Made by a program: the position numbers and the translations under genes
Assembly: GCA_026397405.1 (NCBI GenBank)
Contig: JAPLUW010000001.1
Span: forward strand, 407,064 to 471,063
Source of the DNA: Candidatus Adlerbacteria bacterium
GTDB lineage: Bacteria > Patescibacteriota > Minisyncoccia > Phycocordibacterales > SBAW01
DNA: 64,000 nt
Direction: 5' to 3'
The notes under the pieces: model-generated
The model's database searches: none
What the model was told of the DNA's origin: nothing
What the model saw: the letters and a program-made list of their open reading frames with translations, nothing else
Shown here: one piece after another, positions 3,933-48,645 of the stretch
Position numbering within the stretch: the first letter of the stretch is position 1
How the letters are laid out: the number at the start of each line of letters is the position of its first letter

Positions 3933-4646
3933 ATGAACCCACAACAAAATACCCCGTCACTCCGCGGCCGCACCGTAGTTACAACTGTTGTTATTGTCGT
4001 TGTGCTTATTGCACTGTGTTTAGTCTTGTGGATGTTCCGCAATACGGCGCCACTTTCTGGCCTGCTGGGCTCGACCGCTTCAACTACGCAGCAAACAACT
4101 GGTAGTACAAATACACAGACGGGCTCAACAAACCAAACTACTCCAAATCAAGAAAACTGGAGTACCTACACATCAACCAAGTTTGGTTTTTCTATTCGCT
4201 ATCCAAAAGAGTATCGTCTTGAAACTCCCTACGCGTACAGTGCGCTTGGTCCGGGGCTGACTATACCCGGTGTAAAGTTTGATATTTCTACAACGTCGAC
4301 AAAAGGTACTAACTTGGCGCAGGACACTGGTGTCTCGGTCGAAACTTTGACCACCACCCGAAGCTGTACTGCCGACTTGTTTGTCCACACAAACGACACA
4401 GTAAAAACAATGGTTGACCACGGCACGACCTACTCGGTTGCTGAAAGTAGCGATGCGGGTGCAGGCAACCTCTACCACGAAACTATCTTTGCATTGCCGG
4501 GCACGTCGCCATGTACTGCGGTGCGTTACTTTATACATTCGACACAGCTTGGTAACTACCCACCAAACACCGTTGTTGCCTTTGACCAAACCGCACTCCT
4601 TGCGCAGTTTGATGCAATTCGCCAGACACTTGTCTTGGGTCGCTAA
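3933..4646 (+). CDS. hypothetical membrane-anchored/secreted protein with Thr/Gln-rich linker
   Basis: N-terminal TM helix (VVTTVVIVVVLIALCLVLW) followed by a T/Q/S/N low-complexity linker and a globular domain. A rho-independent terminator follows. Confidence 0.6.
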   Translation: MNPQQNTPSLRGRTVVTTVVIVVVLIALCLVLWMFRNTAPLSGLLGSTASTTQQTTGSTNTQTGSTNQTTPNQENWSTYTSTKFGFSIRYPKEYRLETPYAYSALGPGLTIPGVKFDISTTSTKGTNLAQDTGVSVETLTTTRSCTADLFVHTNDTVKTMVDHGTTYSVAESSDAGAGNLYHETIFALPGTSPCTAVRYFIHSTQLGNYPPNTVVAFDQTALLAQFDAIRQTLVLGR

Positions 4647-6797: not shown

Positions 6798-8405
6798 CTA
6801 AAATCTTTGCCAAAACTTCTGTAGTGCGTGCCACAATGGCCCACTCAACGTTGCGGCAACCCCCGCTATATTTGACGCGGCATCAAGCAGTAGAGATGTT
6901 TTTGCTTTAACGACGATTGTTTGTTTTTGAATTAGTTGCGCACTACTGGTGCCGGCTTTTTGGTAGAGTCCTGCAACATAGGTCCCTGCTATTGTGTACG
7001 TGTGCGCAAAAACAGCACTCTGTGCTTTGCAGACATTTTTCCCGACAGAGACAGTGCTTGTCCCCGAGCCGTCACCATACCCCAAGCTGTAGGTAAGTGC
7101 CGCACATGACTTTGCGTTGTTTACCGACGCAGTAAAAGTGACTGCAAGTGGCAAGGTCCCTGTAGGCGGAGTCGCAAGCAACGAGTCGAGCGTTGTGGTT
7201 GGAGTTGATGTCGCAACAACGGCAGCAACTTTTACAATTGGTACTTCTAAGTTTATTGAACAAGGTGCATTGCCGTACTGGTTGTAAAACGTCAACACAT
7301 ACGTGCGTGATGCTGCAAGGTTTGTAAATGTTCTGCTGCCTTGCGCCGTGTCGCGTGTGCCGTCGCTCCACAGCACATACGTAGTGTCGGTACCTGTCCA
7401 ACTTACCGTCACAGGTTTTCCGGATGTTGCTACAGTCACGTCTGATGTTACCGAACATGTAGGCAGCACAGGAATAGGAGAATTTGAACGGCCTTCGGTA
7501 AAACCACTTGTGGGCATAGACAAAATTTTTGCATTGAGCCAGTCTTCGCTCGTTGTTGCAGACGTGCCGTACGTGTTTGGAGACCAAACAAAGTTACTGG
7601 TTGATGCTTGGTCGGTTGCGTTTGCGAGCGGTTTAAAGGTGTCGCCAAGCAACACGGTATCGACAGAATATGTTGTGTCTGTCGGAGTAACTGTCCCGTC
7701 GAGTTCGAAGTAGTAACTTGTGCCCGCTGGAATTTCTATAGAAGTGTCGGGGACAATAGCAAACGTGTCGCTCGTTGGGTTTGCGAGAGACGAATTAAGC
7801 GGCGTGGTTGTTGCTGTGGTTGTAGATATATCTCTACTGTAAGCAGCGTCTGCAAAGACGTAGAGTCCAATGTCGCCGACCGAGGCTCCGGTTGTGTGTG
7901 TCGCAAAAGAGATCTGGCTAATTCCCACCGGCCCGCTGCTCCCTGCGCGCACGACAAAACGCATCAAACGTCCGTCTGCAACATCGTACGGCGGCAGTGA
8001 GTCGACAGGTTCTACTGTAGGTAGTGACCGGAGGCCAATAGTAAGTGTGCTCGTTGCAAGAGTCGTCGTTCCAGATAGTAACGAAAGGGCATACGTTCCG
8101 GTCGAAAGCGGAGGGAATACATGCGCGCTCCAACGGTTTTGTACAACAGAGACCGGGTTTAAAAATACAGGTGTATGTGTCGCAAGAGATGTTATCGAAA
8201 GGGTCAGCGGAGTCTGTAGCTGTGCGACACTGCCTGCGAGTGTCGGGTCTGCGCGTAGTGATGTTACTCTGCCGTCGAATGATGCTGTCGGGGGAATAGG
8301 AGCACTTACTACCAAGGGCGGCACAGCTGTTTTTCCTGCTACAGAATATGGGAGGAATGAGGAAATAATTCCTGCAATAGCAAGCAGATGTAGGATTTTT
8401 TGCAT
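6798..8405 (-). CDS. large secreted Thr/Ser-rich surface protein (hypothetical, Ig-like beta-rich repeats)
   Basis: Signal peptide MQKILHLLAIAGIISSFLPYSVAG at an internal Met (start moved from 8504 to 8405). About 535 aa. The composition is dominated by T/S/A/V/G with repeated TxT motifs. Confidence 0.65.
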   Translation of the reverse strand: MQKILHLLAIAGIISSFLPYSVAGKTAVPPLVVSAPIPPTASFDGRVTSLRADPTLAGSVAQLQTPLTLSITSLATHTPVFLNPVSVVQNRWSAHVFPPLSTGTYALSLLSGTTTLATSTLTIGLRSLPTVEPVDSLPPYDVADGRLMRFVVRAGSSGPVGISQISFATHTTGASVGDIGLYVFADAAYSRDISTTTATTTPLNSSLANPTSDTFAIVPDTSIEIPAGTSYYFELDGTVTPTDTTYSVDTVLLGDTFKPLANATDQASTSNFVWSPNTYGTSATTSEDWLNAKILSMPTSGFTEGRSNSPIPVLPTCSVTSDVTVATSGKPVTVSWTGTDTTYVLWSDGTRDTAQGSRTFTNLAASRTYVLTFYNQYGNAPCSINLEVPIVKVAAVVATSTPTTTLDSLLATPPTGTLPLAVTFTASVNNAKSCAALTYSLGYGDGSGTSTVSVGKNVCKAQSAVFAHTYTIAGTYVAGLYQKAGTSSAQLIQKQTIVVKAKTSLLLDAASNIAGVAATLSGPLWHALQKFWQRF

Positions 8406-9191: not shown

Positions 9192-10232
9192 TTAATGCAC
9201 TACTACTGTGGCGCTTATAGTTGCCTGCTGGCCCGTGTCGTTTGAAACAGTAAATGTTGGGTGGTAGGTGCCAGCGGTAACATACATGTGGGTAAATGTT
9301 GCTGATGTTTGTATTGGTTGCCCATTTGCAACTGCGGCATAGGCGTAGGTAGTTTCGTCACCCCACACGCTCTGGTAGTGGAGGTTGGCGCCGTTTACAT
9401 AATTTTGCAAGGTTGCGCGGACTGTCCATGTGCCTGTTTGCCCGACAATCAACTGCGGGGGAGCATCAATACCGCTAATCACAGGTGTTTGGTTTTGTGC
9501 GCTCTGGTCAGTGACATAGAAGTTTACAGTATTGCTTGTGCCGTTTTGGTTTTGTACGTACACCTGATAGGCCCCGGGTGTAGTAGGGCGGACCCACAAG
9601 GCCGAGACTTCGGACGACATTGCACAATATGCGCCTGGCGGGCAGTTGGGAGATATATATTGTGGAACAGTAAATGTCAGTGTCGTTCCGTTGTTTGAAT
9701 ACACAGCGTCAAGCGCTTTGCCGCCAAAGTATACGGTGTTTGTTCCGTACAACCCTGACCCATACAAGGTGACAACTGTTCCAATAGGCCCGCTCTGGGG
9801 CGACATAGTTTGTACAGACACTTGTTGTACAGGAGGCACGGGTTGCGGCTGTGGGTATGGATACGGCGGGTAGGTAGTGGTTGTACAACCTATCTGTCCA
9901 AATACGCCGCGGGTCATCACACCTACATACCCTGTCCGCGGGAGGCCGTGCGCTGCTTGGAAGTTTTGTACTGCACGGAACGTGAGCGGCCCAAAAATAC
10001 CAATGGGCGAATAGGGGAAGTATCCTTGAGTAGAAAGAAACGCCTGCAAGTTAGTGACATCGGCATTTTGTAACCCCAAATATAGATTGTTGTAAAACAC
10101 TGGGCATGTCGTTGGTGCAGGCGCATATATAAGGTTAGGAGCCTGTGCAAGTGCGGCATAGGTAGGCAACAAAAGCCCTGCCATAAGTGTAACTGCAACC
10201 ACAGTGCGCTTTACGTTTACGCTTAGAGTCAT
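9192..10232 (-). CDS. secreted peptidoglycan-binding domain protein with Pro-rich linker and C-terminal beta domain
   Basis: Signal peptide ...AALAQA. PG_binding_1-like segment LQAFLSTQGYFPYSPIGIFGPLTFRAVQNFQAAHGLPRTGYV. PYPYPQPQPVPP linker. Confidence 0.65.
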   Translation of the reverse strand: MTLSVNVKRTVVAVTLMAGLLLPTYAALAQAPNLIYAPAPTTCPVFYNNLYLGLQNADVTNLQAFLSTQGYFPYSPIGIFGPLTFRAVQNFQAAHGLPRTGYVGVMTRGVFGQIGCTTTTYPPYPYPQPQPVPPVQQVSVQTMSPQSGPIGTVVTLYGSGLYGTNTVYFGGKALDAVYSNNGTTLTFTVPQYISPNCPPGAYCAMSSEVSALWVRPTTPGAYQVYVQNQNGTSNTVNFYVTDQSAQNQTPVISGIDAPPQLIVGQTGTWTVRATLQNYVNGANLHYQSVWGDETTYAYAAVANGQPIQTSATFTHMYVTAGTYHPTFTVSNDTGQQATISATVVVH

Positions 10233-13163: not shown

Positions 13164-13955
13164 ATGAAAAAAAATATTCTCGTAGCTCTTTCACTGCTCG
13201 GGTTTAGCGTTGCCCTTGCGCCTGTCCTTGCCTCTGCTGCAACAGCAGTAACCACAAGCGCGAATATTACAACACCAGTTGCAACAGTAACTATGAGCGC
13301 AAGTGCCATGGCAGCTGCTAAGGCGCGCGGCGACAAAGAGCTTGACCGCCGTATCGCTGCACTCACCGACGTAAATGCACGCATCCAAACCATGCAAAAG
13401 GTGACCGACGCGTTTAAGCAAAACTTGGCAACAAATATTCAAACACAGATAACAGGCTTCGCTGCTCTTAAATCAAAAATTCAAGCTGACACCGACGCAG
13501 GTGTGTTGAAAGCGGATGTTACGTCAATAACCCAGTCGTATCGCGTCTACGCGCTGATACTCCCACAGGTGCGCATTGCCGCCGCTGCCGACCGCGGAGT
13601 GCTCATTGCTGAAATGATGACAACGCTTGGTAACAAACTTGCGGCGCGTATCCAGGCTGCTGGCAAGGGTGGGGCTGATGTTACTGCCATGACAGCTTCT
13701 TTGAACGATCTTGGTGCAAAGATCTCTGACGCAAGTACTCAAGCACAAGCCTCTGTTTCGACAAGTGCAGCACTTACACCAGACCGTGGTGACAAAACAA
13801 AGATGGCATCAAATACTGCAACGCTAGCAAAAGCACGCGCTAACTTGGCTGCAGTAGAAAAAGACTTCCTGGCAGCACGTAAAGACATCGACAGTATTAT
13901 GAAAGGTCTTAAGGCTGCAGCAAGCGCAACTACAAACACGACAGTAAGTCACTAA
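13164..13955 (+). CDS. secreted Ala-rich coiled-coil protein (hypothetical)
   Basis: Signal peptide MKKNILVALSLLGFSVALAPVLASA. Highly A/T/K-rich and helical. Confidence 0.6.
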   Translation: MKKNILVALSLLGFSVALAPVLASAATAVTTSANITTPVATVTMSASAMAAAKARGDKELDRRIAALTDVNARIQTMQKVTDAFKQNLATNIQTQITGFAALKSKIQADTDAGVLKADVTSITQSYRVYALILPQVRIAAAADRGVLIAEMMTTLGNKLAARIQAAGKGGADVTAMTASLNDLGAKISDASTQAQASVSTSAALTPDRGDKTKMASNTATLAKARANLAAVEKDFLAARKDIDSIMKGLKAAASATTNTTVSH

Positions 13956-14804: not shown

Positions 14805-15731
14805 ATGACATTTTCCCGTGCCGCTCTCGTCGCTGTAGTACTCGCACTCGCATCATATGCGGTGCCTTTTGTGTCTTCGGCCGACACCGCACCATATTCT
14901 GAAGTTGTAATAACAACCAGACTTGCTGCAGGTGTTTCAACCCCAATTGTCTCCCCAATTGTTACCGTTACTGCAACCGTACCGACCATGTACGGCGCTA
15001 CAAACAACGGCTCGTCACAGTTGTACTACCAGTCAAACTTTGCAAACGACACTCGGTATGTAACGTTTGTGCCGGGTAGTTACAATGTGTCTATAACAGA
15101 CTCAAACTATTATTTTACCTATTCTCCTGACTGTTCGGGTTTTACACCGCTTGGTGGTGCAATAAAAACCTGCACCGTTACGCTTTCAACAACACCACAA
15201 CTGAGCAATCCATGCACAGGTATTTGGTATGGGACAGCGGGGTGCCCAGCACCAATTGTGGCCTACGCAGGTGGCTCGTACGTGCCGACACACCTTTCCT
15301 GCACACCAAACTACCAGAGCATTGGCGCAGGACAGGCTGCAACTTTTACCGCAACAGGTGGCACACCTGGCGGGTATAATTGGTCCACTGCAGACCGCAC
15401 CTTCTTGAATGTTGGCGCGCAGCTCACAACCGTGTTCCAGACTATGGGCACACAAACGGTCAACGTTTCAAACGGTGTACAAAACGCAACCTGCACCGTC
15501 GCCATTAACTCAACCGGAGGTGCGATAACCTACAGTGGTAGTTCAAATGCTTCGGCAACAACGTACAGCGGTGCTGCGTCTGTCGTACAAAACTATGTCC
15601 CTGCATATCTGCCAAACACTGGCTTTGGCCCACAAAACGGGACAGTCTTTGCACTTATTGCAGTCTTGCTCATGAGCGCAGGAGTATTCTTCTTCCCGTA
15701 TGTCAGAAAAGCACTTGCTATTATCGGCTAG
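14805..15731 (+). CDS. LPXTG-anchored cell-surface protein (sortase substrate)
   Basis: N-terminal signal peptide. Thr/Ser-rich beta domain. C-terminal LPNTG, then hydrophobic segment ALIAVLLMSAGVFFF, then a basic tail (RK). Confidence 0.75.
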   Translation: MTFSRAALVAVVLALASYAVPFVSSADTAPYSEVVITTRLAAGVSTPIVSPIVTVTATVPTMYGATNNGSSQLYYQSNFANDTRYVTFVPGSYNVSITDSNYYFTYSPDCSGFTPLGGAIKTCTVTLSTTPQLSNPCTGIWYGTAGCPAPIVAYAGGSYVPTHLSCTPNYQSIGAGQAATFTATGGTPGGYNWSTADRTFLNVGAQLTTVFQTMGTQTVNVSNGVQNATCTVAINSTGGAITYSGSSNASATTYSGAASVVQNYVPAYLPNTGFGPQNGTVFALIAVLLMSAGVFFFPYVRKALAIIG

Positions 15732-16380
15732 CACAAGCGTAGTGCCGGTATCTCCACATACCTATACCCGACTGTTGTTCTCACTTGTGGGAGTAGCGGT
15801 TGTGCTTGTTGGTGCTGCTAACATACTTTCGCGTGTGGCTGGCACTACACTTGAGGGCAGTGCAGTACAGACTGCCTTTGCGCCAGCTGCGTCACTTTTG
15901 CTTTTGCCTGCAGGTGTTGCAACCACAACGCCGCTTACGCCGGCTCGTATAAAAATCCCAAGCATTGGTGTTGATGCTGTTGTTGAACATGTAGGGCGAA
16001 AAACCGACGGCTCTATGGCAACTCCGGCAGCGTTTGGAAATGTCGGATGGTACGAGCTTGGTGCACAGCCGGGGATGCCGGGCAACGCTGTTTTTGCTGG
16101 TCACGTAAACAATGCACTTACAAAGTCGGGAGTGTTCGAACATCTCTCCGATGTAAAAGTTGGCGACTATGTAACTGTTGCAGACGCTGCAGGCAAAACG
16201 CTTGTGTATGTTGTCACAGAAACCGACCAGTACCCGGCCGAACAAGCGCCCGCAACATCAATATTTTCACCAAATGGCCCAACACAACTTGTGCTTATTA
16301 CCTGTGACGGCGCGTGGGATGCCGCTGCACATTCCTACGATAAACGTTTTGTTGTCTACGCACGGCTCACCGCGCGTTAG
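15700..16380 (+). CDS. sortase (class E-like cysteine transpeptidase)
   Basis: N-terminal TM anchor. Conserved His (VFAGHVNN), catalytic Cys in LVLITCDG, Arg near the C-terminus. Overlaps the 3' end of the LPNTG-protein gene by 32 nt. Confidence 0.85.
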   Translation: MSEKHLLLSASTSVVPVSPHTYTRLLFSLVGVAVVLVGAANILSRVAGTTLEGSAVQTAFAPAASLLLLPAGVATTTPLTPARIKIPSIGVDAVVEHVGRKTDGSMATPAAFGNVGWYELGAQPGMPGNAVFAGHVNNALTKSGVFEHLSDVKVGDYVTVADAAGKTLVYVVTETDQYPAEQAPATSIFSPNGPTQLVLITCDGAWDAAAHSYDKRFVVYARLTAR

Positions 16381-23777: not shown

Positions 23778-23865
23778 GGAGGCGTCGGATAGTGGTTTAT
23801 TCCACCATCTTGGAAAGATGGCATACCGCAAGGTATCGTGAGTTCAAATCTCACCGCCTCCGCCA
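23778..23865 (+). tRNA. tRNA-Ser (anticodon GGA), CCA encoded
   Basis: Manual fold: acceptor GGAGGCG/CGCCTCC, anticodon loop TTGGAAA, long variable arm, T-loop TTCAAAT, G73. Confidence 0.85.
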
Positions 23866-23892
23866 TAAGAAAATTGTCTATAATTGCAGTAC

Positions 23893-23982
23893 GGAGAGAT
23901 GGATGAGTGGTTTAAATCAACAGTTTACTAAACTGTCGACCCTTAATTGGGTCCGCGAGTTCGAATCTCGCTCTCTCCGCCA
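23893..23982 (+). tRNA. Ser-type tRNA (long variable arm, G73) with apparent anticodon ACU; its 3' end overlaps the left inverted repeat of the mobile element
   Basis: Manual fold: acceptor GGAGAGA/TCTCTCC, D stem GAT/ATC, anticodon stem ACAGT/ACTGT, loop TTACTAA, T-loop TTCGAAT, CCA encoded. Confidence 0.75.
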
Positions 23983-24096
23983 AAATTCGGAATTCAAATT
24001 TCCGCCAAAAATATGGTCGGCGCGAAGCGCCGTCTGTTCTGCATTCCCCCCAAAAAATTCTGATTCAGAAAGGATTTTCCACGCTCCGCGTGGCTC
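23977..24096. repeat. IR1-L: 120-nt inverted repeat (partner 25341..25452, 119/120 identical)
   Basis: Reverse complement of 25341..25452. Contains the dyad site CCACGC-TCC-GCGTGG at 24079..24093. Overlaps the last ~34 codons of the recombinase gene and the tRNA 3' end. Confidence 0.9.
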
Positions 24097-25319
24097 AAAA
24101 TTCGATCCTTAATTTGAAAGTTCGAACCGACTTTTTTGAACAAATGAATATTTTCCTCATTTGTTCGGTCGTTTGCCAATTCCATATTGTATTTCAAAAA
24201 CTTTTCGGTAAGTTCGAACCGATTATTCGCTTTTATACCGTCCGCAAAAAGCGTACTCGATTGGACTTCCGATTGCCGATCTTTTGCATTCTCGGCAATC
24301 ATCCAATTTGCCCAATCGAGCGGCAAAGAAACTTTTTTGATTTCCTCTTGAATTTGAGAAGTGATGAGTTCCTCGCGGACATACTTCTGCTCACAAGGAT
24401 TTTTCCGTTTGGTACACCGCAAATAGTGATGACCTTTTTGTTGCTCGGTTGTTATAAAACATCCACATTCTCCGCAACGGAAAAATCCTCTGTACAAAAA
24501 TAGTTTCAGTCCTTTGGAGTGAGGTTTACTTTTCCTCATCATCACTTCTTGAACGGAATCAAAAAGTTTCTTTGTGATAATCGGTTCGTGCTTTCCCTCA
24601 AAAATCTCTCCGTTATATCGCATTAGACCAGTGTAAATAGGATTTTTGAGAAGTTTTTGATAATTCGACACCGCAAGCTCTCTACCGCTTTTTCTTTTCA
24701 ATCCAAGCCCATTAAACTTGTCGCGGACTTCCCTCAAAGTGAAGTTTCCAGTTGCATATGCCTCAAATGTCTTTTTCACTAAAATCGAAAGTTCGGGATG
24801 AGGCACAATACCTTTTCCTTTCTCGTTCACATAGCCAATCGGAGACATTTGAGGCCATATTCCTTCCTTCACTTTGTTTCTGTGTCCGCGCTTAATATTC
24901 TCCGACAAGTTATCTACATAATACTTGGATTGCGAAAAAGCGATTGAGAGCATGAATTTCCCTTGCGGTGTCGGATCAAACCAAAAAGTTGGAAATTTCA
25001 TTTCTACGATTACGCCAGTATCAACGAGGTAGATTATTTTTCCTCCATCTACCGAGTTGCGAGCAAGTCTATCGGGATGCCACGCCAAAATACCAGACGC
25101 CTCGCCTTTTTCCATTCGCTCCACCATTTCATTAAACACAGGGCGACCTGGTATTTTGGCGGTCTGCTTTTCGACAAAGACATCAACCACTTCCAGTTGT
25201 TCTTTCAACGCGAGTTCTTTTAACTCACTCAACTGGTCGGAAATACTGCGGACTTGTCTGTCTTTGTCGTCCGTAGACTTGCGAGTATAAATGAAAAACT
25301 TTTTGGTTTGATTATTCAT
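23994..25319 (-). CDS. large serine recombinase (resolvase/invertase catalytic domain + recombinase domain + zinc ribbon)
   Basis: N-terminal YTRKSTDD...ISDQ...LAWHPDRLARN resolvase fold with nucleophilic Ser. Central recombinase domain. Cys-rich zinc ribbon CGECGCF...YLRC. 441 aa. Confidence 0.9.
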   Translation of the reverse strand: MNNQTKKFFIYTRKSTDDKDRQVRSISDQLSELKELALKEQLEVVDVFVEKQTAKIPGRPVFNEMVERMEKGEASGILAWHPDRLARNSVDGGKIIYLVDTGVIVEMKFPTFWFDPTPQGKFMLSIAFSQSKYYVDNLSENIKRGHRNKVKEGIWPQMSPIGYVNEKGKGIVPHPELSILVKKTFEAYATGNFTLREVRDKFNGLGLKRKSGRELAVSNYQKLLKNPIYTGLMRYNGEIFEGKHEPIITKKLFDSVQEVMMRKSKPHSKGLKLFLYRGFFRCGECGCFITTEQQKGHHYLRCTKRKNPCEQKYVREELITSQIQEEIKKVSLPLDWANWMIAENAKDRQSEVQSSTLFADGIKANNRFELTEKFLKYNMELANDRTNEENIHLFKKVGSNFQIKDRILSHAERGKSFLNQNFLGGMQNRRRFAPTIFLAEI

Positions 25320-25340
25320 AGATTTGTATTGGCAAACGAC

Positions 25341-25452
25341 GAGCCACGCGGAGCGTGGAAAATCCTTTCTGAATCAGAGTTTTTTGGGGGGAATGCAGAA
25401 CAGACGGCGCTTCGCGCCGACCATATTTTTGGCGGAAATTTGAATTCCGAAT
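25341..25452. repeat. IR1-R: inverted partner of IR1-L
   Basis: Contains CCACGC-GGA-GCGTGG at 25344..25358. Confidence 0.9.
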
Positions 25453-25661
25453 TTTGGCGGTGTGTATTAAACAAAGTTCGAATGTATTTTGAGTTGAATC
25501 CTGACTCCGACTAATCGCACGCGCGGAGCGCGTAGTGGCTCTGGATTGAACCGTACGCCCCGATTGCGTGGGGAAACGAACCAATGCGCCTCGGACAGTC
25601 TCCTCCCCCCACCCCTCCACCGCGAAGCGGAAAAAGAAATGGAAAGGAAATTTTTGGTTTT
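25449..25661. repeat. IR2-L: ~213-nt inverted repeat (partner 35209..35431), identical except two indels
   Basis: Reverse complement of 35209..35431 is identical over ~165 nt. There is a 48-nt insertion here and a 57-nt insertion in the partner. Contains ACGCGC-GGA-GCGCGT at 25511..25525. Confidence 0.9.
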
Positions 25662-25744
25662 GCTTCGCCGTTGTCAATAATCTCATCTATTGTAATATAT
25701 CACATTATTGATATACGGCACAACAAACTGATACACTATAAACT

Positions 25745-25957
25745 GTGGATATGAAAACATCATCAATAAAACTGGGGAAAAACATAAAGCGCATACGAGA
25801 GCGAAAGAAAATGTCGCAAGGCGACATTTGTCGTGCACTCGGCTTTGATCGCGCTCAAATGAGTAATATTGAGGGCGGTAAGGGAAACCCGACACTTGCT
25901 ACTATTGAAAAAATCGCCCAAGCATTAGGAGTCGCTAGCGACGAACTTTTGAAATAA
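25745..25957 (+). CDS. XRE-family HTH transcriptional regulator
   Basis: 70 aa with a Cro/C1-type HTH (QGDICRALGFDRAQMSNIEGG...TLATIEKIAQALGV). Confidence 0.85.
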   Translation: MDMKTSSIKLGKNIKRIRERKKMSQGDICRALGFDRAQMSNIEGGKGNPTLATIEKIAQALGVASDELLK

Positions 25958-25959
25958 AT

Positions 25960-26823
25960 ATGACAACAAAAATATACAAATTCATACCACTCACACTGCT
26001 CGCACTATTTGTCTTCGCTCCGAGTCTTGTTCTAGCCCATCAACCTCGCATTACCGAGAGCAGGCAAACACAAGTCCCTAGTCCAGAAATTTCCAAAGCG
26101 TATTACGGCAAGCTTACCGGCGAGCCAGATGTCTATGTCATACAGGCAAGCGAGCCCTTTGATCTCTACGTCAATATACTCGTCCCCGATATTGCCGGCC
26201 AAAAGAAAGATGTCTCTGCCGTAGTCATTAAAGACGGCAATGTTGAAAAACCTCTGGCAGTTCTTGACGGTATACATTTTGAATGGAAGAAGTTTTATGA
26301 ACCTTTTGGTGCTGACAGCTACTGGATGGGGCCAGAGTACAAGGCCCGCGCAGTAGCTGGTATGTATGAGATCCGCGTATCGAGCCCAAACAACGACAGC
26401 AAGTACTCACTCGCCATCGGCGAGATAGAAGCTTTTGACGGCAAGGAGGGATTGAATGCACTCACTGTCATCCCCGAGCTAAAGAAAAACTTTTTTGAAG
26501 TATCTCCAATAAGTTTTATTAAATCACCGTTCGGCTGGGGACTTATCGTGGTTATGTATATTCTTGCGTTCATTGTGGGCTTCATCTACCGCACAATTTT
26601 GAAAAAGTTTGCCAAAAATTCTTCCCGTGGCGTTGCCCGAAATATCGGCAAGCCCGACCGCTTGCTCCGTGCGGTCATCGGCGTAGCATTACTCCTATGG
26701 GCTATCACCACCACATGGAGCCCTATCCTCATCTTCTTCTCCGGCTTCGCATTCTTTGAGTCGATATTTAGCTGGTGTGGATTTTATGCAGCTCTCGGCA
26801 AAAACACCTGCCCGGTGGAGTAA
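25960..26823 (+). CDS. secreted/membrane protein with C-terminal DUF2892-like (YgaP-type) TM domain
   Basis: Signal peptide. Soluble ~190-aa domain. C-terminal two-TM segment ending SWCGFYAALGKNTCP, typical of DUF2892. Confidence 0.6.
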   Translation: MTTKIYKFIPLTLLALFVFAPSLVLAHQPRITESRQTQVPSPEISKAYYGKLTGEPDVYVIQASEPFDLYVNILVPDIAGQKKDVSAVVIKDGNVEKPLAVLDGIHFEWKKFYEPFGADSYWMGPEYKARAVAGMYEIRVSSPNNDSKYSLAIGEIEAFDGKEGLNALTVIPELKKNFFEVSPISFIKSPFGWGLIVVMYILAFIVGFIYRTILKKFAKNSSRGVARNIGKPDRLLRAVIGVALLLWAITTTWSPILIFFSGFAFFESIFSWCGFYAALGKNTCPVE

Positions 26824-26943
26824 AAATTTACGGCCAAAGTATCACTTGCCACTGAAGATTGGGGTTCGCAAATAGGATGGGGAGGGAATAGTGGCTATTG
26901 AAAAATAAAGTTTATAATAGAAGTAAGGACTGAAGATACATAA

Positions 26944-27210
26944 ATGGATACTATAACCATACACACGATTGCCATCATTGCGTTTATTATCTGGAGTTTT
27001 CCTCTGGGATTGTTTCGCAGTCGATTTAGGAAGATGGTCTATCAAACTGATAGCTGGTGGATTAATGTAAAGCCCGTTTTTTGGGAGGAGATCAAAGTGC
27101 TTTTTGGCTTTCATCAGCGCACGAAGAGGGCAGAGTTGCGGCTGATTAATTTCTATCGTTTTTATCTGATCGTATACTTCGCTATTTTAATTTTAATACT
27201 ATCAACCTGA
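26944..27210 (+). CDS. small membrane protein (hypothetical)
   Basis: 88 aa with two hydrophobic helices. Followed by hairpin 27309..27350. Confidence 0.45.
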   Translation: MDTITIHTIAIIAFIIWSFPLGLFRSRFRKMVYQTDSWWINVKPVFWEEIKVLFGFHQRTKRAELRLINFYRFYLIVYFAILILILST

Positions 27211-27352
27211 TAGATAAATACTACCTACACCTTGTACTCATACCATGAGAAGCCCACATGAGCGCCACCCTCCTGGCTTTTTTAGTTGGGTGGGGGAGGT
27301 GGTAGAATAAAACGTAAATTTAGTCGATATTCGTGTATAATTTACGTTTTTC

Positions 27353-27381
27353 TTGACTTATTTTAATAAATAGACTATAAT
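27353..27381 (+). promoter_or_regulatory. consensus sigma-70 promoter upstream of fic (-35 TTGACT, 17-nt spacer, -10 TATAAT)
   Basis: TTGACT at 27353..27358 and TATAAT at 27376..27381, 14 nt before the ATG. Preceded by an 11-bp-arm hairpin plus T-run (27309..27350). Confidence 0.55.
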
Positions 27382-27395
27382 TTGAGTAAATATTT

Positions 27396-28289
27396 ATGAA
27401 AAATATACCCAAAAAAGTCCAAAATATCATAGATTTAAAAAAGAAATTCGATGCTCTTAAAAAGGGCAAAGATTCTCTTTTAACTATTCTTGAAGATGTA
27501 GAGTTGGCGGAATCTGTTTATAACTCAAATGCTATTGAAAACAGCACACTTACTCTACCTGACACAGAAAAAATACTATTGGATCTGGAAGTTTCTAAGG
27601 ATTATTCTTTACGTGAAGTTTTTGAAGCCAAAAATCTAGCTCGTGTATATGAATACATAAAGATAAAAAAAGATAGTATTGTTCTTAATCAAAAAACAAT
27701 GCTTTTTCTCCATAGCCTGCTTATTGGTGGCATAGATGATTCGATTGCTGGCAGGTTTAGAAAAGAGAGCGAATATGTCAGAGTTGGCAAACATGTAGCT
27801 CCAGCGCCAGAACATGTAATACGAATGATCGAGGTAATTCTCGATGAATACAAATCAAATCATGATGCAAATGTATTTGCCAAGATTGCTCACTTCCATT
27901 TACAGTTTGAAACAATACATCCATTTTGTGATGGGAATGGGCGTATTGGGCGTGTATTAATAAATCTGCAACTTCAGGAATTTGGTTATCCAAATATAAT
28001 TATTCGTGATAAAGAAAAGCAAGTTTATTATAGAACTTTTACACATTTTCGTGATACAAAATCAACAAAGCAAATGGAGAAAGTTATACATCTTGCATTG
28101 TTAGAGGGTTTACACAAAAGGATTGCATATTTAGAAAGCGCAACCATAGTCACTCTTTCTGCTTACGCAAAGAAACATTCATTACCCCTTGCAAATCTTA
28201 TCAATAGCGGAAGACGACAAACTATTCCAGCTTTTCGTGAAAAGGGTATTTGGAAAATAGGAGTTGAATATAAAAAAATAGATTTATGA
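27396..28289 (+). CDS. Fic family protein (AMPylator/NMP-transferase) with N-terminal inhibitory motif
   Basis: Fic motif HPFCDGNGRIGR. N-terminal [ST]xxxE[GN]-type inhibitory motif SNAIEN. Confidence 0.9.
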   Translation: MKNIPKKVQNIIDLKKKFDALKKGKDSLLTILEDVELAESVYNSNAIENSTLTLPDTEKILLDLEVSKDYSLREVFEAKNLARVYEYIKIKKDSIVLNQKTMLFLHSLLIGGIDDSIAGRFRKESEYVRVGKHVAPAPEHVIRMIEVILDEYKSNHDANVFAKIAHFHLQFETIHPFCDGNGRIGRVLINLQLQEFGYPNIIIRDKEKQVYYRTFTHFRDTKSTKQMEKVIHLALLEGLHKRIAYLESATIVTLSAYAKKHSLPLANLINSGRRQTIPAFREKGIWKIGVEYKKIDL

Positions 28290-28363
28290 AGAAAATTATT
28301 TAAAAATTGCAAAGGAGTATCTGTCTAAAAACTAATTTCATATACAAATGGTATAATAAATGT

Positions 28364-30034
28364 ATGAATGAAATTTTTTATACGGATGTCGCTAATGATT
28401 TGCGTACAATAATCAAAGGAGATATTTCTATCTTAGACAGTGATCGAGAAAAAGCTGCGCGAGACACAAGCCTTTTTTATGTAAAACCTCGCATTGTTGT
28501 CTACCCAAAAAGCAAAGAAGACATTGCAAGACTTGTTGCTTATGTGCATGCAAAAAAAACTAAAGATATAGATCAGGGTGTTCCGTTATCCCTCACCATG
28601 CGAGCCGCTGGTACATGTATGACCGGTGGCCCACTTTCGGAATCCATCGTCGTAGACACAATGAAATACATGAATCATGTATTTTCTGTCACCGACACAG
28701 AGGCCATAACAGAGCCGGGAGTATACTATAGTGATTTTGAGAAAAAAACTCTTGCGCACGGCTGGCTTTTGCCAAGCTATCCGGCGTCTCGTGATTTGGC
28801 TGCGATTGGAGGTATTGTCTCTAATAACTCAGGAGGTGAAAAGACACTTACCTATGGAAAGACGGAAAAGTATGTTCGCTCGCTCCGTGTTGTATTTGCA
28901 AATGGAGAAGAAGATGTTCTAGAACCACTTCATGCAGAGAAACTTATCGCAAAATGCGAAGAGCAAACTGAAAGCGGGCGAATTCATCGAGAGATATTTG
29001 CCCTTGTAAAGGACAACTATGATGTACTGCAACAAGCAAAACCGACAGTAACAAAAAATTCTTCGGGGTACTATCTTTGGAATGTCTACGATAAAGAATC
29101 AGGAGTATTTGACCTATCAAAGCTCGTTGTGGGCAGTCAGGGAACCCTTGCCTGTGTGACTGAAGCGACATTGAGTGGAATTGCCCCCAAAAAACATTCC
29201 AGAATGCTCGTTATGTTTTTGCCAGCCACAACACAACTAGGAGAAATAATTCCAAGACTTTTAAAACATACACCTGAAACCATCGAATCTTATGATGATC
29301 ATACGTTTAAAATAGCGATTAAATTCTTTGGCTCAATTGCAAAAAGCATGGGGGGTACTATGTTGACGCTCGGGTTCCAATTTTTGCCTGAGTTTTGGAT
29401 GGCAATCACTGGCGGAGTTCCAAAGATAATTCTCATGGCAGAATTTGCAGGGGATACTGAAGAAGAAGTTGCAGAGCAGGTACAGTCAGCATATAACGAG
29501 ATGAAGGTATTCGGATTTCCTATTACATTGACGCACTCGGAACAAGAAGCAAAAAAGTATTGGACATTCAGGCGCGAAAGCTTCAACCTGCTTCGCCAGA
29601 AGTTGCGAGGGTATCGAACGGCACCCACAATTGATGATATTGTCGTACACACAAAAGATCTCCCGGAGTTTCTTCCCAAACTTGAAATTATTTTTTCAAA
29701 ATATGATCTTATTTATACTGTAGCCGGACATATGGGAGATGCAAACTTTCATATTATTCCGCTTATTGACATTCATAAAGAAGGAATAGTTGAGACTCTC
29801 CACACACTCATGGATGAAGTCTATACTCTCGTATTTCAGTATGGAGGTTCTATGTCTGGAGAACATAATGACGGACTTTTACGTACCTCGTACCTTTCGC
29901 AGATGTTTAACCCTGAGATCGTACGTCTCTTTGAAAAGACAAAAGATATTTTTGACCCGCTTGCTATTTTAAACCCAGGTAAAAAAGTGTATGGAGACAA
30001 GGGTTTTGCGTGGAATCATATTGATACAAAATAA
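28364..30034 (+). CDS. FAD-linked oxidase (FAD_binding_4 / GlcD-like, D-lactate dehydrogenase family)
   Basis: FAD-binding PCMH domain (VVYPKSKEDIARLV...RAAGTCMTGG) and a C-terminal FAD-oxidase_C region. Start moved to internal ATG 28364. Confidence 0.8.
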   Translation: MNEIFYTDVANDLRTIIKGDISILDSDREKAARDTSLFYVKPRIVVYPKSKEDIARLVAYVHAKKTKDIDQGVPLSLTMRAAGTCMTGGPLSESIVVDTMKYMNHVFSVTDTEAITEPGVYYSDFEKKTLAHGWLLPSYPASRDLAAIGGIVSNNSGGEKTLTYGKTEKYVRSLRVVFANGEEDVLEPLHAEKLIAKCEEQTESGRIHREIFALVKDNYDVLQQAKPTVTKNSSGYYLWNVYDKESGVFDLSKLVVGSQGTLACVTEATLSGIAPKKHSRMLVMFLPATTQLGEIIPRLLKHTPETIESYDDHTFKIAIKFFGSIAKSMGGTMLTLGFQFLPEFWMAITGGVPKIILMAEFAGDTEEEVAEQVQSAYNEMKVFGFPITLTHSEQEAKKYWTFRRESFNLLRQKLRGYRTAPTIDDIVVHTKDLPEFLPKLEIIFSKYDLIYTVAGHMGDANFHIIPLIDIHKEGIVETLHTLMDEVYTLVFQYGGSMSGEHNDGLLRTSYLSQMFNPEIVRLFEKTKDIFDPLAILNPGKKVYGDKGFAWNHIDTK

Positions 30035-30057
30035 AAAATTTGTAGCCATTCTTAATT

Positions 30058-30447
30058 TTGCTATACTACAAGCATATGGAACATACAACTATACAGAGTC
30101 AGACCCCTACTCCTGAAAATAACTCGCCACTGACTCAACAAAAATGCATGGCATGCGAGGGTGGTGTCATTCCTTTTTCAAAGATAGAGGCAGATATATT
30201 ATGCAAGCAAATTCCCGGCTGGGATATTTCGCTTGATGCTAAAAGTATCGCCAAGCGATATGGTTTTAAAGACTTCAATGAAGCTCTTGTTTTTGTAAAT
30301 AAGGTTGGCGTTTTGGCTGAATCAGAGGGGCATCATCCGGACATATATCTGAAAGACTACAAATTTGTAGAGCTCACACTGTCCACCCATGCAATTAACG
30401 GACTCTCTCAAAATGATTTTATTCTTGCGGCTAAAATAGACGCCTAA
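30058..30447 (+). CDS. pterin-4-alpha-carbinolamine dehydratase (PCD/DCoH) with short Cys-containing N-terminal extension
   Basis: PCD signature region FNEALVFVNKVGVLAESEGHHPDIYLKDYKFVELTLSTHA. Confidence 0.85.
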   Translation: MLYYKHMEHTTIQSQTPTPENNSPLTQQKCMACEGGVIPFSKIEADILCKQIPGWDISLDAKSIAKRYGFKDFNEALVFVNKVGVLAESEGHHPDIYLKDYKFVELTLSTHAINGLSQNDFILAAKIDA

Positions 30448-30539
30448 TGTACTAGTATAATTCCATTAAACTATGATTAATCATTCTCCCTGTTATAGTT
30501 CTTGCAATGAAATCATGGTGGATATTAATAAATAACATT

Positions 30540-31667
30540 ATGGAAGAATCTTTGACAAAAAAACTCGATTTTATAGTCATAGGCGCAGGTATTGCCGGGC
30601 TTTCGTGTGCTTATCACCTCACCAAAGATGGTTACAGCGTCATGGTGTTCGAGAAATCGGACGGAAAAGATAATGCAAGCTATGCCTCTACCGCGGAGAT
30701 GAATCACGATCCGGACGCAAGCTGGGATAGGATCATAAGTAAGTTTGGTATTCGGGGGGCAAGGTACATCTGGAAACTTTCTGAATTTTCTGCGCAGAAA
30801 CTTACGAAATTCGCACATCGTCCGGGGTCGGAACACTTTTCGACCAAGCGAGTGCCGGCGCATATTTTTACCTATGACCAGAAAGGCGTAACGCTCTTAA
30901 AAAAGAGATTTGAACTATATAAGAAAATAGGGGCACAGGTTACGTTCACAGAAAACGCAAAATCTCTGCACAAGAATTTTCGTTCCTCGATAACTATAAA
31001 AAACGAAGGCGCAACAAATAACCAAGCTCTACTAATAGCTCTCCGGGCCGCCACGCACGAACAGGGTGGCAAGGTTATGTACAAGACGCCAGTAGTAGAT
31101 CTCAAGGTCAACAAGCAGGGGGTAGAAGTCAGAACAAAAAAAGGGAATATATTTCATGCAAAGCATGTGATACTCGCGACAGGCGGAATAGAGCTCATTA
31201 ATCTCCCGATCAAGATTGGGAGAGAGCGAACGTTTGTTGTGAGTTACAAAAAGCGAAATATGGACAAACTTTTCTCGTCTTCGCTCCTGTGGGATACAGC
31301 TGAGCCATTTCATTACATCCGTTCATTTGTAGGAAAGCGACTTTGGGTCGGAGGAGAAGACGTGGCAGAGGAATCCTATACACCTAGCTCGGACAAAAGG
31401 CATATTGCTGCACTGGATAAATATTCCAGAGAAGTATTGGCACTTGATTCCTCATACGTTCTTGAAAAGAAAAAAAGTTGGAGCGGAGTTTTTTTTCCGA
31501 CCGCGCGTGGATTGCCGTATATTGGCGACGTAGCCGGAACACCTATAAAACTTGCATTAGGATTCGGTGGGTCAGGTATTCTTATGTCTTTTGTATCTGG
31601 ATATCTAATTGCCTCATGGCTGAAGAAAAAAGAAATGAAATACAAACCGCTGTTCAAGATATGGTGA
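30540..31667 (+). CDS. FAD-dependent oxidoreductase (DadA/glycine-oxidase-like)
   Basis: Rossmann DFIVIGAGIAGLSCAYHL. C-terminal GG..G (FGGSGILMS). Confidence 0.8.
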   Translation: MEESLTKKLDFIVIGAGIAGLSCAYHLTKDGYSVMVFEKSDGKDNASYASTAEMNHDPDASWDRIISKFGIRGARYIWKLSEFSAQKLTKFAHRPGSEHFSTKRVPAHIFTYDQKGVTLLKKRFELYKKIGAQVTFTENAKSLHKNFRSSITIKNEGATNNQALLIALRAATHEQGGKVMYKTPVVDLKVNKQGVEVRTKKGNIFHAKHVILATGGIELINLPIKIGRERTFVVSYKKRNMDKLFSSSLLWDTAEPFHYIRSFVGKRLWVGGEDVAEESYTPSSDKRHIAALDKYSREVLALDSSYVLEKKKSWSGVFFPTARGLPYIGDVAGTPIKLALGFGGSGILMSFVSGYLIASWLKKKEMKYKPLFKIW

Positions 31668-31750
31668 ACTTTTACTCCGAATTGGGGAGCTAAGATGTCG
31701 GGGAAAAGGGGCTGGAAAACTGAGGCTTTTAGTGTCTGATCAATACAAAT

Positions 31751-31782
31751 AAAAAAACTCTAACTTTTGTTAGAGTTTTTTT
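31751..31782. terminator. bidirectional rho-independent terminator between convergent genes
   Basis: AAAAAAACTCTAAC...GTTAGAGTTTTTTT. Confidence 0.7.
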
Positions 31783-31801
31783 ATTTGTATTTCAGATGTA
31801 T

Positions 31802-32203
31802 TTATTTTGGCATCAAGACTGAGTCGATGACATGGATTACTCCGTTTGTACATTCTATGTCTGTTTGTACTACTTTGGCGTCGTTTACCATAACTCCATT
31901 TGCAGTGTCTATTTTAACTTCACCACCCTGTACTGTCTTTGCAGAAGTTAGACCCATTACATCAGAAGCCATTACTTTTCCTGCCACTACATGGTACGTA
32001 AGTATAGCTGTTAGCTTTGCTTTATCCGCGAGGACTGCATCGAGAGTCTCTTTTGGAATTTTGGCGAAAGCCTCATCAGTTGGAGCAAATACAGTGAAGG
32101 GCCCTGCACCAGATAGAGTGTCTACTAATCCTGCTACTTGTACTGCTGTTACTAAAGTTTTAAAGGATCCTGCCGCGACAGCTGTTTCTACGATATTTTG
32201 CAT
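31802..32203 (-). CDS. fasciclin (FAS1) domain protein
   Basis: [11 protein letters not shown]...LTYHVV...[13 protein letters not shown]1 motifs. Confidence 0.85.
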
Positions 32204-32265
32204 ATATTTATTTTAAATTGATTAAATATTGTTAATGCATACATGAAACAATTCGGGGTCGGAGA

Positions 32266-32472
32266 TTACTTTCTTCCAAGGTTTCCTAATTGAGTAAGAA
32301 GGTATACAGCTGATAGTCCTACCAATGTATATACTATTCTTGAGATTGCTGACATGTCACCAAACAGAGTTGCAACTAAGTCGAAATTTATTACCCCAAC
32401 TAATGCCCAGTTTAGACCACCTACAATCACAAGGATCATAGATACTAAATCCAATAAGTTTAATTTATTCAT
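32266..32472 (-). CDS. DUF378 family small membrane protein
   Basis: 68 aa. VGGLNWALVG motif. Confidence 0.8.
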   Translation of the reverse strand: MNKLNLLDLVSMILVIVGGLNWALVGVINFDLVATLFGDMSAISRIVYTLVGLSAVYLLTQLGNLGRK

Positions 32473-32584
32473 TTTATTTTTTTAATATTTTAAATTATCA
32501 ATTCGACCTTCCTCACTTGATATAGTTATATTATAAGATTTATGATAAAATAATGCAATACTTGTTTATAATTAACAATAACGT

Positions 32585-33241
32585 ATGTCGATGAATAAAA
32601 CTATGATCAATATACTTATCGCTTTGTTTGTTATTGTGGTGCTTTGGTCTATCTCAGGATTTTTTGGTTCTCGTGTTGAGCAAGCTGACTATACTGTCCT
32701 TGAGATAAAGGATGGATATGAAATACGAGAATATCCGGCACATATCGTAGCGCAGACTATGGTAAAGGGTTCTTATGGAGAATCTATGAATAATGGTTTT
32801 AGAATTGTGGCTGGGTATATCTTTGGCGGGAATACAAAAAAAGAAAGCATAGCCATGACCGCTCCAGTCGTCGCGCAAAGTGGCAAAGGTGAAAAAATAT
32901 CAGAAAGCATAGCCATGACTGTACCAGTCGTCGCGACGACTGAGGGCGACTCGCAAATAATATCTTTCGGCATGCCTCGTTCTTATACTCTGGAAACATT
33001 GCCGACACCAAATGATCCTCGAGTGAAAATTGTGATGATTCCTACCAAGAAATATGCAGTACTGCAGTTCTCATGGTATCGCTCGGATGCTCGGGTAAAA
33101 AACATGCAAGAAAAATTAGCTTCGGCACTTGCTCGTGATGGAGTAGCAACAAAGGGAAACACTGCATACGCTGGATACAATGCACCGTGGACTCCACCGT
33201 GGATGAATCGTAACGAAGTATTGGTTGAAATTATTAATTAA
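32585..33241 (+). CDS. SOUL/HBP heme-binding family protein with internal 20-aa tandem duplication
   Basis: SOUL-like fold (N-terminal TM, GYIFGGN, C-terminal ...YNAPWTPPWMNRNEV). 60-nt tandem duplication at 32843..32935 (ESIAMTAPVV / ESIAMTVPVV). Confidence 0.75.
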   Translation: MSMNKTMINILIALFVIVVLWSISGFFGSRVEQADYTVLEIKDGYEIREYPAHIVAQTMVKGSYGESMNNGFRIVAGYIFGGNTKKESIAMTAPVVAQSGKGEKISESIAMTVPVVATTEGDSQIISFGMPRSYTLETLPTPNDPRVKIVMIPTKKYAVLQFSWYRSDARVKNMQEKLASALARDGVATKGNTAYAGYNAPWTPPWMNRNEVLVEIIN

Positions 33242-33252
33242 TCTTATTTTTT

Positions 33253-33651
33253 ATGTTCATAAAACTTTACGCAATCGCATTACCAGTTTTCTTCGCCATC
33301 GACATGGTGTGGCTCGGGCTCGTGGCCAAAGACTTTTATCGAGGGCAAATAGGCACGCTTATGAAAAGTGATGTCAACTGGACCGCGGGGATTATTTTTT
33401 ACCTGATATTTATTGTGGGACTAGTGGTATTTGTCATCACACCAGCCGTGGAAAGGGGCTCATGGACGCACGCACTACTTTTCGGTGCGCTGTTTGGTTT
33501 GGTGTGTTATGCAACCTATGACCTCACCAACCTCGCGACACTCAAAGATTGGCCATTGCTCGTAACTATCGTTGATTTAGCGTGGGGTGCAGTACTCGCG
33601 GCTTCCGTATCTACCGCGACATACTTCATCGCAAGCAAGATCGGTTTATGA
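33253..33651 (+). CDS. DUF2177 family membrane protein
   Basis: 132 aa with 4 TM helices. YDLTNLATLKDWP motif. Confidence 0.65.
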   Translation: MFIKLYAIALPVFFAIDMVWLGLVAKDFYRGQIGTLMKSDVNWTAGIIFYLIFIVGLVVFVITPAVERGSWTHALLFGALFGLVCYATYDLTNLATLKDWPLLVTIVDLAWGAVLAASVSTATYFIASKIGL

Positions 33652-34412: not shown

Positions 34413-34418
34413 CGTAGC

Positions 34419-47812: not shown

Positions 47813-47883
47813 GCGAGTGTAGTTTAGTGGCAGAACTGGTGCTTCCCAAGCATCGGGCGGGAGTTCGATTCTCCCCACTCGCA
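47813..47883 (+). tRNA. tRNA-Gly (anticodon CCC)
   Basis: Manual fold: acceptor GCGAGTG/CACTCGC, anticodon loop TTCCCAA, T-loop TTCGATT. Confidence 0.8.
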
Positions 47884-47927
47884 CAGAAAATGATATAATG
47901 GCCCTCTAGCTACTAAATTATATTTGT

Positions 47928-48170: not shown

Positions 48171-48227
48171 CAAAAAAATAAAATATATCGCATACTCAAA
48201 CTGGCCCTGAAGGCCAGTTTTGTATTA

Positions 48228-48299
48228 GCCCCCGTAGTTCAATGGATAGAACAGCCCCGTCCTAAGGGGTAGATGCTGGTTCGATTCCGGCCAGGGGCA
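48228..48299 (+). tRNA. tRNA-Arg (anticodon CCU)
   Basis: Manual fold: acceptor GCCCCCG/CAGGGGC (one C-A mismatch), anticodon loop GTCCTAA, T-loop TTCGATT. Confidence 0.7.
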
Positions 48300-48640: not shown

Positions 48641-48645
48641 GTAAT

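Follow-up and report, generated by a model that had tools for sequence, protein, structure and literature searches.

Which protein does the sortase of an uncultivated, ultra-small bacterium act on, and how are enzyme and substrate tied to each other? Sortases are common in the Patescibacteria, or candidate phyla radiation (CPR), and to our knowledge none of them has a known substrate. A sortase family is found in over half of CPR genomes (PMC6744442), single-genome papers go no further than mentioning a sortase (PMC7143001), and the literature searched on sortases or LPXTG in Patescibacteria, Parcubacteria or CPR yielded no account of the substrate family or the gene overlap described below. 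We analysed a 64-kb stretch of DNA (the window) from Candidatus Adlerbacteria (Patescibacteria/CPR), which makes up ~13% of a 495.6-kb contig (495,613 bp). Here a gene for a 308-aa secreted surface protein with an LPNTG sorting signal at its C-terminal end (the substrate; 14805..15731) overlaps a gene for a 226-aa sortase (15700..16380); both lie on the plus strand. We consider it likely that the two overlapping genes form a surface-display module, composed of a Sec-secreted LPNTG protein and a membrane-anchored class F-like sortase. The initial annotation of the window had proposed a cognate sortase-LPNTG pair in a lineage whose envelope is Gram-positive-like, and this core reading is upheld. 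The system is real and mostly ordinary, and its unusual part is the conserved gene junction. The NCBI name of the enzyme, class F sortase, and the frequency of sortases in CPR were already known; new here are the conserved synteny of the pair, its fixed overlap with a retained ATG, the wobble constraint in the overlap, the domain make-up of the substrate and a set of miniature open reading frames (mini-ORFs).

The LPNTG protein and the sortase form a conserved pair

Scanning metagenomes with the sortase profile added 80 related loci, and 68 loci had at least 400 nt of upstream sequence. In 66 of these 68, the sortase start is overlapped by an upstream ORF whose product ends in [LFWM]P[NRDS][TA]G, a hydrophobic helix and PY(V/A)(R/K)K; one of the two exceptions is a probable frameshifted substrate ORF and the other has no locatable sortase ATG. 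All 10 full-length genome loci found with the substrate profile have the sortase directly 3' of the substrate. A word-indexed search returned 30 substrate homologues, all from Adlerbacteria/Paceibacterota, and LPN(T/A)G is invariant across them. Because of this invariance and the recurrence of the pair in 66/68 related loci, the observation is real and not due to chance. Conservation of both the pair and its junction in these loci strongly supports a cognate pairing of the predicted enzyme and its predicted substrate.

The gene order around the pair recurs as well and reads p263 - ZIP transporter - substrate - sortase - RRM protein - HhH-GPD glycosylase - RNase J (opposite strand). In the window, p263 (13164..13955, plus strand, two genes upstream of the substrate) encodes a 263-aa secreted, Ala/Thr-rich and probably helical protein that falls in no Pfam family; over much of the clade it keeps its place near the sortase pair, with 38-70% identity in diverged loci. 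The sortases have diverged to 42-72% identity among loci and the substrates far more. Judged from gene order and sequence, the substrate-sortase pair is a single syntenic, orthologous and ancestral locus that has been inherited vertically.

The initial annotation had also called the substrate the only LPXTG protein in the window. A six-frame regular-expression and hydropathy scan of the 64 kb found no second pentapeptide followed by a hydrophobic stretch and a basic tail, tblastn found no second sortase or substrate paralogue there, and no second LPXTG-type protein was present in ~700 kb of flanks of related loci. As far as the window and these flanks show, one enzyme may be dedicated to one substrate.

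The substrate carries a complete sorting signal

A gene caller, run independently on public contigs with identical proteins, predicted the same two genes, both of which are ATG ORFs, and the NCBI record for the identical substrate protein (NT019_02315, from a Candidatus Adlerbacteria metagenome-assembled genome) is labelled "hypothetical". The signal peptide, LPNTG motif, hydrophobic helix and RK previously annotated at 14805..15731 are all present. The N-terminus (MTFSRAALVAVVLALASYAVPFVSSA before D) has, by inspection, the form of a Sec signal peptide. It spans approximately residues 1-27 (14805..14885) and consists of MTFSR, a hydrophobic core and VSSA, with cleavage inferred between VSSA and D; homologues show AxA followed by Q at this position in the alignment, and the region is modelled as an N-terminal helix (residues 2-24) by AlphaFold. 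The C-terminal sequence runs YVPAY-LPNTG-FGPQN-GTVFALIAVLLMSAGVFFFPYV-RK-ALAIIG. The LPNTG sortase recognition pentapeptide (residues 269-273 of 308; 15609..15623) thus lies where an LPXTG motif is expected, within ~35-40 residues of the C-terminus. In the alignment of the 30 homologues L269, P270, N271, G273 and P276 are invariant, which defines the extended motif LPNTGFxP.

The pentapeptide is followed by a 22-residue hydrophobic, membrane-spanning segment (residues 279-300; 15639..15704) that is helical in the model over residues 279-295. Its best 15-residue Kyte-Doolittle mean is 2.68, and hydropathy thus confirms a genuine transmembrane (TM) helix and basic tail. The cytoplasmic tail RKALAIIG (residues 301-308; 15705..15728, with RK at 15705..15710) corresponds to a family consensus of PY(V/A)(R/K)K plus seven residues, and the six uncharged residues beyond RK are there because of the gene overlap.

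The enzyme is a class F-like sortase

The downstream protein matches Pfam Sortase PF04203 with an E value of 5.2e-25 and 88 bits (cut-off 26.6) over model positions 1-124 of 125, and its assignment as a sortase, first made from a TM anchor, a FAGHV His and a LITC Cys, is thereby borne out by hidden Markov model (HMM), by catalytic triad and by predicted fold. Among the NCBIfam models, class_F_sortase (NF033748) scores 130.7 bits and every other class at most 42 bits (class C, 19.7; class D, 24; TIGR01076 general sortase, 26; TIGR03784, 41.9). Class F is the top-scoring class for all 24 relatives tested, the window sortase leads its next class by ~90 bits, and NCBI labels the identical protein "class F sortase". 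By these profile scores the enzyme would belong to a class F-like, divergent subfamily.

The sortase opens with a conserved cytoplasmic peptide (15700..15768) whose consensus, MSEKxLLLxSAK..., is seen in the alignment of 24 relatives and in the junction table. It is followed by a hydrophobic N-terminal membrane anchor (approximately residues 24-46, 15769..15837; helix 19-50 in the model) and an extracytoplasmic linker of low predicted local distance difference test (pLDDT) score (15838..15927). Within this linker, which is otherwise variable, Phe60 and Pro62 of an AFAP element (residues 60-62; 15877..15885) are invariant, and AFAP could be a lid-like or pseudo-substrate element. HMM spans and the model place the catalytic β-barrel domain at residues 77-226 (15928..16377). 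His135 in FAGHV (16102..16104), Cys202 in LITC (16303..16305) and Arg216 in KRFVVYA (16345..16347) align with the catalytic residues of the solved sortases 8t28 and 7s54 and are invariant in the 24 relatives. An AlphaFold2 (AF2) model has the sortase fold, an eight-stranded β-barrel of pLDDT 80-96 over residues 80-226. Foldseek returned 105 PDB matches to this model at E ≤ 1e-3, the best 50 of the 105 are all sortases, and the matches include sortases A/C/D/E with E values of 1e-9 to 1e-7. The 226-aa sequence contains neither the DP(W/F/Y) lid motif of class C sortases nor a C-terminal TM segment.

The junction is constrained in two reading frames

The substrate and sortase genes share 32 nt (15700..15731), the extent initially annotated, with the sortase in the +1 frame. 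Over this stretch the substrate frame reads ...Y-V-R-K-A-L-A-I-I-G-stop and the sortase frame M-S-E-K-H-L-L-L-S-A-S. The 59 unique junctions comprise 53 with an overlap of 35 nt, five with 32 nt (the window type) and one with 29 nt. The sortase ATG is kept in all 59, inside substrate codons that specify only Tyr/His and Val/Ala; that is, the changes observed are those that leave A-T-G intact. In the 10 genome loci the pattern is ccN-TATG-TC-AGA-AAA, with the ATG within the Pro-Tyr-Val-Arg/Lys codons of the substrate. In 47 of 53 junctions the substrate ends on an NGC codon (Arg/Gly/Ser) and a TAA/TAG stop, which in the sortase frame gives Ala and then Lys or another residue. Third codon positions of the substrate carry 1.27 bits of information in the overlap but 0.34 bits in the immediately preceding stretch that codes for the TM helix. 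This wobble constraint, confined to the overlap, is the signature of selection on both frames over 32-35 nt; since the loci are orthologous, conservation of the junction also partly reflects shared ancestry. RNAalifold found no conserved RNA structure in 37 diverged junctions (energy 0.0, compared to -0.03 for column shuffles), and the nucleotide conservation is therefore attributed to dual coding and not to RNA folding.

The sortase start is not marked by a recognisable ribosome-binding site. A Shine-Dalgarno (SD)-like motif before the ATG is absent in 52/53 junctions, and no internal promoter or SD site is conserved upstream of it. An AGGA that the window has 16-20 nt before the ATG was rejected as a ribosome site, as it is non-conserved and too distant from the start. 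Across the window, 33 of 35 gene starts have no SD-like 4-mer within 21 nt upstream. Several window genes have an A/T-rich, -10-like sequence directly before the ATG, and these sequences may reflect leaderless or SD-independent initiation. The translational coupling named in the initial annotation is plausible, and in this SD-less genome we give roughly even chances to the idea that the overlap ties synthesis of the sortase to translation of the sorting signal of its substrate.

The substrate is predicted to display two β-sandwich domains on a stalk

Domain 1 of the substrate (residues 31-130; 14895..15194) is a β-sandwich modelled with pLDDT ~85-95 that is a distant relative of SpaA_2 prealbumin-like domains and contains the conserved pair Cys110/Cys123. 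An inter-domain linker of low pLDDT (residues 131-162; 15195..15290), with Cys137/Cys147 near-conserved in the alignment, connects it to domain 2 (residues 163-236; 15291..15512; pLDDT 82-90), a PKD-like Ig domain with the invariant pair Cys166/Cys230. The disordered stalk that follows (residues 237-268; 15513..15608; pLDDT < 50) is rich in Ser/Thr/Gly/Tyr and differs in length among homologues. Pfam PKD matches occur in 8/30 family members, and the substrate profile aligned to repeats of P0195 over domain 1 (Pfam: SpaA_2) and of P0175/P0167 over domain 2 (PKD). An exhaustive profile search with the substrate family gave 1,304 representative proteins at E ≤ 1e-3, many of which are giant proteins that repeat one or other domain 5-16 times. 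A sequence search of the family against the PDB gave nothing significant.

The initial annotation had suggested looking for pilin-like Ig folds and isopeptide Lys/Asn in a model of the substrate. Ig-like folds are indeed present in the AF2 model, and by Foldseek they are generic tandem Ig-like folds only (Dscam, Big_2, LigA), with no pilin match; the Lys/Asn part does not hold, as these residues are not conserved. The SpaA_2 repeats, which we take to form Lys-Asn/Asp isopeptides, contain a ...CT(I/V)TN(D/N)D motif in which the family consensus of domain 1 replaces Asn with Leu/Ser and keeps the Cys pair. No Lys is invariant or near-invariant among the 30 homologues, whereas six Cys (C110, C123, C137, C147, C166 and C230) are invariant or nearly so, and disulfides rather than isopeptide bonds would stabilise the displayed domains. 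Lys accounts for 0.22% of the passenger regions of the family, 40/58 passengers have none, and the mature window substrate has one, the non-conserved K121. The idea that Lys avoidance is a sortase-specific adaptation was down-weighted because all charged residues are scarce in the passenger, and likewise in a window exoprotein of similar composition (9192..10232). The modules of the substrate are typical of Gram-positive adhesins and lack the requirements of a sortase-polymerised pilin.

In other organisms the PKD-like domain is repeated 5-13 times in tandem within proteins of 600-2,350 aa (P0165, P0167, P0173, P0175, P0177, P0181 and P0196), and SpaA_2-like repeats are found in different large proteins such as P0195. 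The large PKD-repeat proteins have different C-terminal anchors, either ...APKTGAD, a helix and RKRK or ...VVTGPxE, a helix and a basic tail, and these may be other sorting signals.

The distal part of the substrate varies and can be lost

Of 59 unique substrates, 13 align end to end, ~20 align from residue ~86 onwards only, and another ~20 align over no more than the PKD-like domain and the signal; some of this last group are single-domain forms of 175-190 aa. The PKD-like domain is present in ~55/59 and is the only passenger module common to most substrates at the locus across the clade. The few without a whole PKD-like domain either retain its last strand together with stalk and signal or have the signal and nothing else. 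Across the alignment, the wall-proximal part and anchor are conserved and the distal N-terminal part has been repeatedly replaced, a pattern that would fit an exposed surface protein that mediates interactions.

The extreme of this variation is seen in at least two lineages, in which the substrate is reduced to a mini-ORF of 66-67 aa (loci L090, 5832..6035, and L095, 4001..4201; also proteins P0151, P0152 and P0159). The mini-ORFs have no signal peptide and keep LPN(T/A)G, the helix, PYVRK and the 35-nt overlap, and the sortase beside them is intact. A search of a 5.8-billion-protein set with the sorting-signal profile gave only 14 short ORFs or fragments and brought the mini-ORFs to light. 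The mini-ORFs are compatible with translational coupling and also with a housekeeping sortase that has substrates elsewhere, and they hint at additional substrates or another role of the sortase. A tentative and rather doubtful possibility is that the junction is an expression device, in which the sortase is translated only by ribosomes that have just come off the sorting signal, and the sorting-signal ORF is an obligatory upstream ORF. If so, enzyme and substrate would be produced in constant proportion and at one and the same place on the membrane, and the sorting-signal ORF would survive passenger loss as a mini-ORF because it is obligatory.

Other features of the window

Three Thr-rich neighbours (6798..8405, minus strand; 9192..10232, minus strand; and 3933..4646) are present and carry no sorting signal, as had been annotated. 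The first two are secreted, have low charge and weak PKD-domain matches, are unrelated to the substrate by BLASTP and are probably held at the wall non-covalently. The protein at 9192..10232 is a PG_binding_1 protein, and a MurJ lipid II flippase is encoded elsewhere in the window (43426..45099).

GC content falls from ~0.49 to 0.39-0.42 over 23778..34500. Directly after tRNA genes at 23778..23862 and 23893..23979, this stretch opens with a large serine recombinase (23994..25319, minus strand), which is followed by genes for a Fic protein (27396..28289), a YgaP-like TM protein, FAD-linked oxidases, DUF1295 and a SOUL haem-binding protein. The whole resembles a mobile element integrated at a tRNA. 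Two groups of three tRNA genes each lie at 47813..48718 and 53472..55287. An Rfam scan of the window gave tRNAs only and nothing at the sortase locus.

Discussion

Taken as a surface-display module, the locus would work as follows, by analogy with sortase biochemistry. The sortase would be tethered by its N-terminal helix, with the His135/Cys202/Arg216 active site outside the cell, and the C-terminal helix of the substrate would retain it in the membrane. LPNTG would be cut between Thr and Gly to give a thioacyl intermediate on Cys202, and the protein would then be passed to an amine of a lipid II/peptidoglycan stem peptide. The displayed architecture would comprise the SpaA_2-like prealbumin domain, the PKD-like Ig domain, the Ser/Thr-rich stalk and what had been a tripartite sorting signal. 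The outcome, two β-sandwich domains on a stalk, would most likely be an adhesin or a surface-coat protein. Under this scheme, the catalytic domain (residues 77-226) would cleave an YVPAYLPNTGFGPQ peptide in a manner that depends on Cys202.

Several points weigh against such a module. The sorting signal scores 16.1 bits (E 0.011) with Pfam Gram_pos_anchor PF00746, under the 20-bit cut-off, and matches no NCBIfam anchor model; being under the curated anchor threshold, it is overlooked by automatic annotation. The 130.7 bits of the enzyme do not reach the curated NCBIfam class F cut-off of 166 bits, and we therefore call it class F-like rather than class F. The substrate scan covered the window, ~13% of the contig, together with the ~700 kb of related flanks, and the mini-ORFs are unexplained by a strict one-enzyme, one-passenger model. 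An overlap of 32-35 nt is long for efficient termination-reinitiation, and given this length coupling may be weak or take a different route. Finally, that the acceptor is peptidoglycan is an assumption, and we know of no experiment on any CPR sortase.

The same mini-ORFs, with their intact sortases, bear on whether the enzyme is instead a general housekeeping sortase with several scattered substrates, of which the LPNTG neighbour is merely the most conserved, so that the pair is not dedicated. We regard this as a serious possibility that falls short of even odds. The only characterised class F sortase, that of Cutibacterium acnes, is described as housekeeping (PMC8225981), the locus is syntenic amid core genes, other organisms have both domain types in giant, C-terminally anchored proteins with many repeats, and the scan took in 64 kb of a 495.6-kb contig. 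Set against these points, neither the window nor the related flanks contain a second LPXTG-type signal, and in 66/68 cases the enzyme co-varies with the extended signal (LPNTGFxP...PYVRK) as a single locus. It is improbable that the acceptor is something other than peptidoglycan, such as a different polymer of the envelope, a component of the S-layer or an amine on the surface of a host cell, or that the enzyme only cleaves and releases its substrate. Little is understood of how the CPR envelope is built (PMC5220378), what class F sortases do physiologically was still called unknown in 2026 (PMC13251363), and the mini-ORF variants would expose a peptide of only ~27 residues; however, the sorting signal is canonical, and the MurJ and PG_binding_1 proteins encoded in the window point to lipid II and peptidoglycan and thereby make such an acceptor plausible.

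Two further explanations were rejected. The initial annotation had offered "pilin or adhesin" as the role of the substrate, and the pilin option, in which the sortase would polymerise the substrate through a pilin-motif Lys in the class C/SpaA style, is now disfavoured and very unlikely. The distant relationship of domain 1 to SpaA_2 prealbumin-like repeats and the class C sortases among the top Foldseek matches of the enzyme model speak for it, but the substrate has no pilin motif, no conserved or isopeptide-type Lys (K121 included, and most passengers are Lys-free) and only generic Ig-like structural matches, while the enzyme lacks the class C lid and C-terminal TM and scores 19.7 bits as class C against 130.7 as class F. 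Moreover, a single sortase stands with a single substrate gene and no tip or base pilins are found nearby. The +1 frame of the sortase and a conserved AGAAAAGC stretch within the overlap would also suit a programmed +1 frameshift, for example on A-AAA-G, that yields a substrate-sortase fusion cleaved in cis, and such a fusion would have a fitting topology, as two TM helices would leave both domains outside. We consider this extremely unlikely. The ATG present in 59/59 junctions, with substitutions that all preserve A-T-G, is what independent initiation predicts, the AAAAG conservation is accounted for by Lys codons in both frames, and no conserved stimulatory RNA structure accompanies it.

With the surface-display module as the preferred reading, the locus offers, for a class F-like sortase of an uncultivated ultra-small bacterium, a substrate that occurs naturally beside it and an extended recognition motif, LPNTGFxP, and the specificity of the sortase is therefore directly testable in vitro. 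Since a conserved wall-proximal PKD-like domain and anchor are combined with a variable N-terminal part at a syntenic locus, the substrate is a candidate for the protein with which these episymbiont-like organisms coat their surface or contact a host. The out-of-frame overlap, maintained clade-wide, is a clean natural case of dual-coding constraint and may also exemplify expression coupling in an SD-less genome. The general picture of sortase function is unchanged by the locus.

Comparison with known sortase systems

Among solved structures, the closest to our model by Foldseek are the class C sortases of the SpaA-type pilus systems of C. diphtheriae and A. oris, and the substrate shares with those pilins a SpaA_2-like domain and an LPXTG signal; the resemblance ends at the lid, the C-terminal TM, the class C score and the pilin and isopeptide-type residues discussed above. 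The LPNTG substrates of class A sortases in streptococci (PrtS, SadP) share the same LPNT(G/A) core motif, as does the LPNTA motif of the class D sortase SrtC of Bacillus anthracis. The window enzyme differs from these class A and class D enzymes in family, with 24 bits to the class D HMMs and 26 bits to TIGR01076. The class GN "marine" sortase (TIGR03784) is paired with one neighbouring target, and the locus resembles it in that the sortase gene lies beside one cognate target and is inherited with it as a unit. The window enzyme scores 41.9 bits with TIGR03784, however, and the type of envelope and the target domains differ; we know of no out-of-frame overlap in the class GN system.

The strongest likeness is to the class F sortases (NF033748), with which the window enzyme shares its best class score, an N-terminal membrane anchor, the His-Cys-Arg triad and an LPXTG-type motif; the class F sortase of C. 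acnes recognises LPXTG (PMC8225981, which cites Di Girolamo et al. 2019). It departs from them in its sub-threshold score (130.7, below 166) and in coming from Patescibacteria and not from Actinobacteria. It departs from them as well in its MSEKxLLLxSAK N-terminus, which is co-encoded with the tail of the substrate, and in having one specific substrate gene always upstream.

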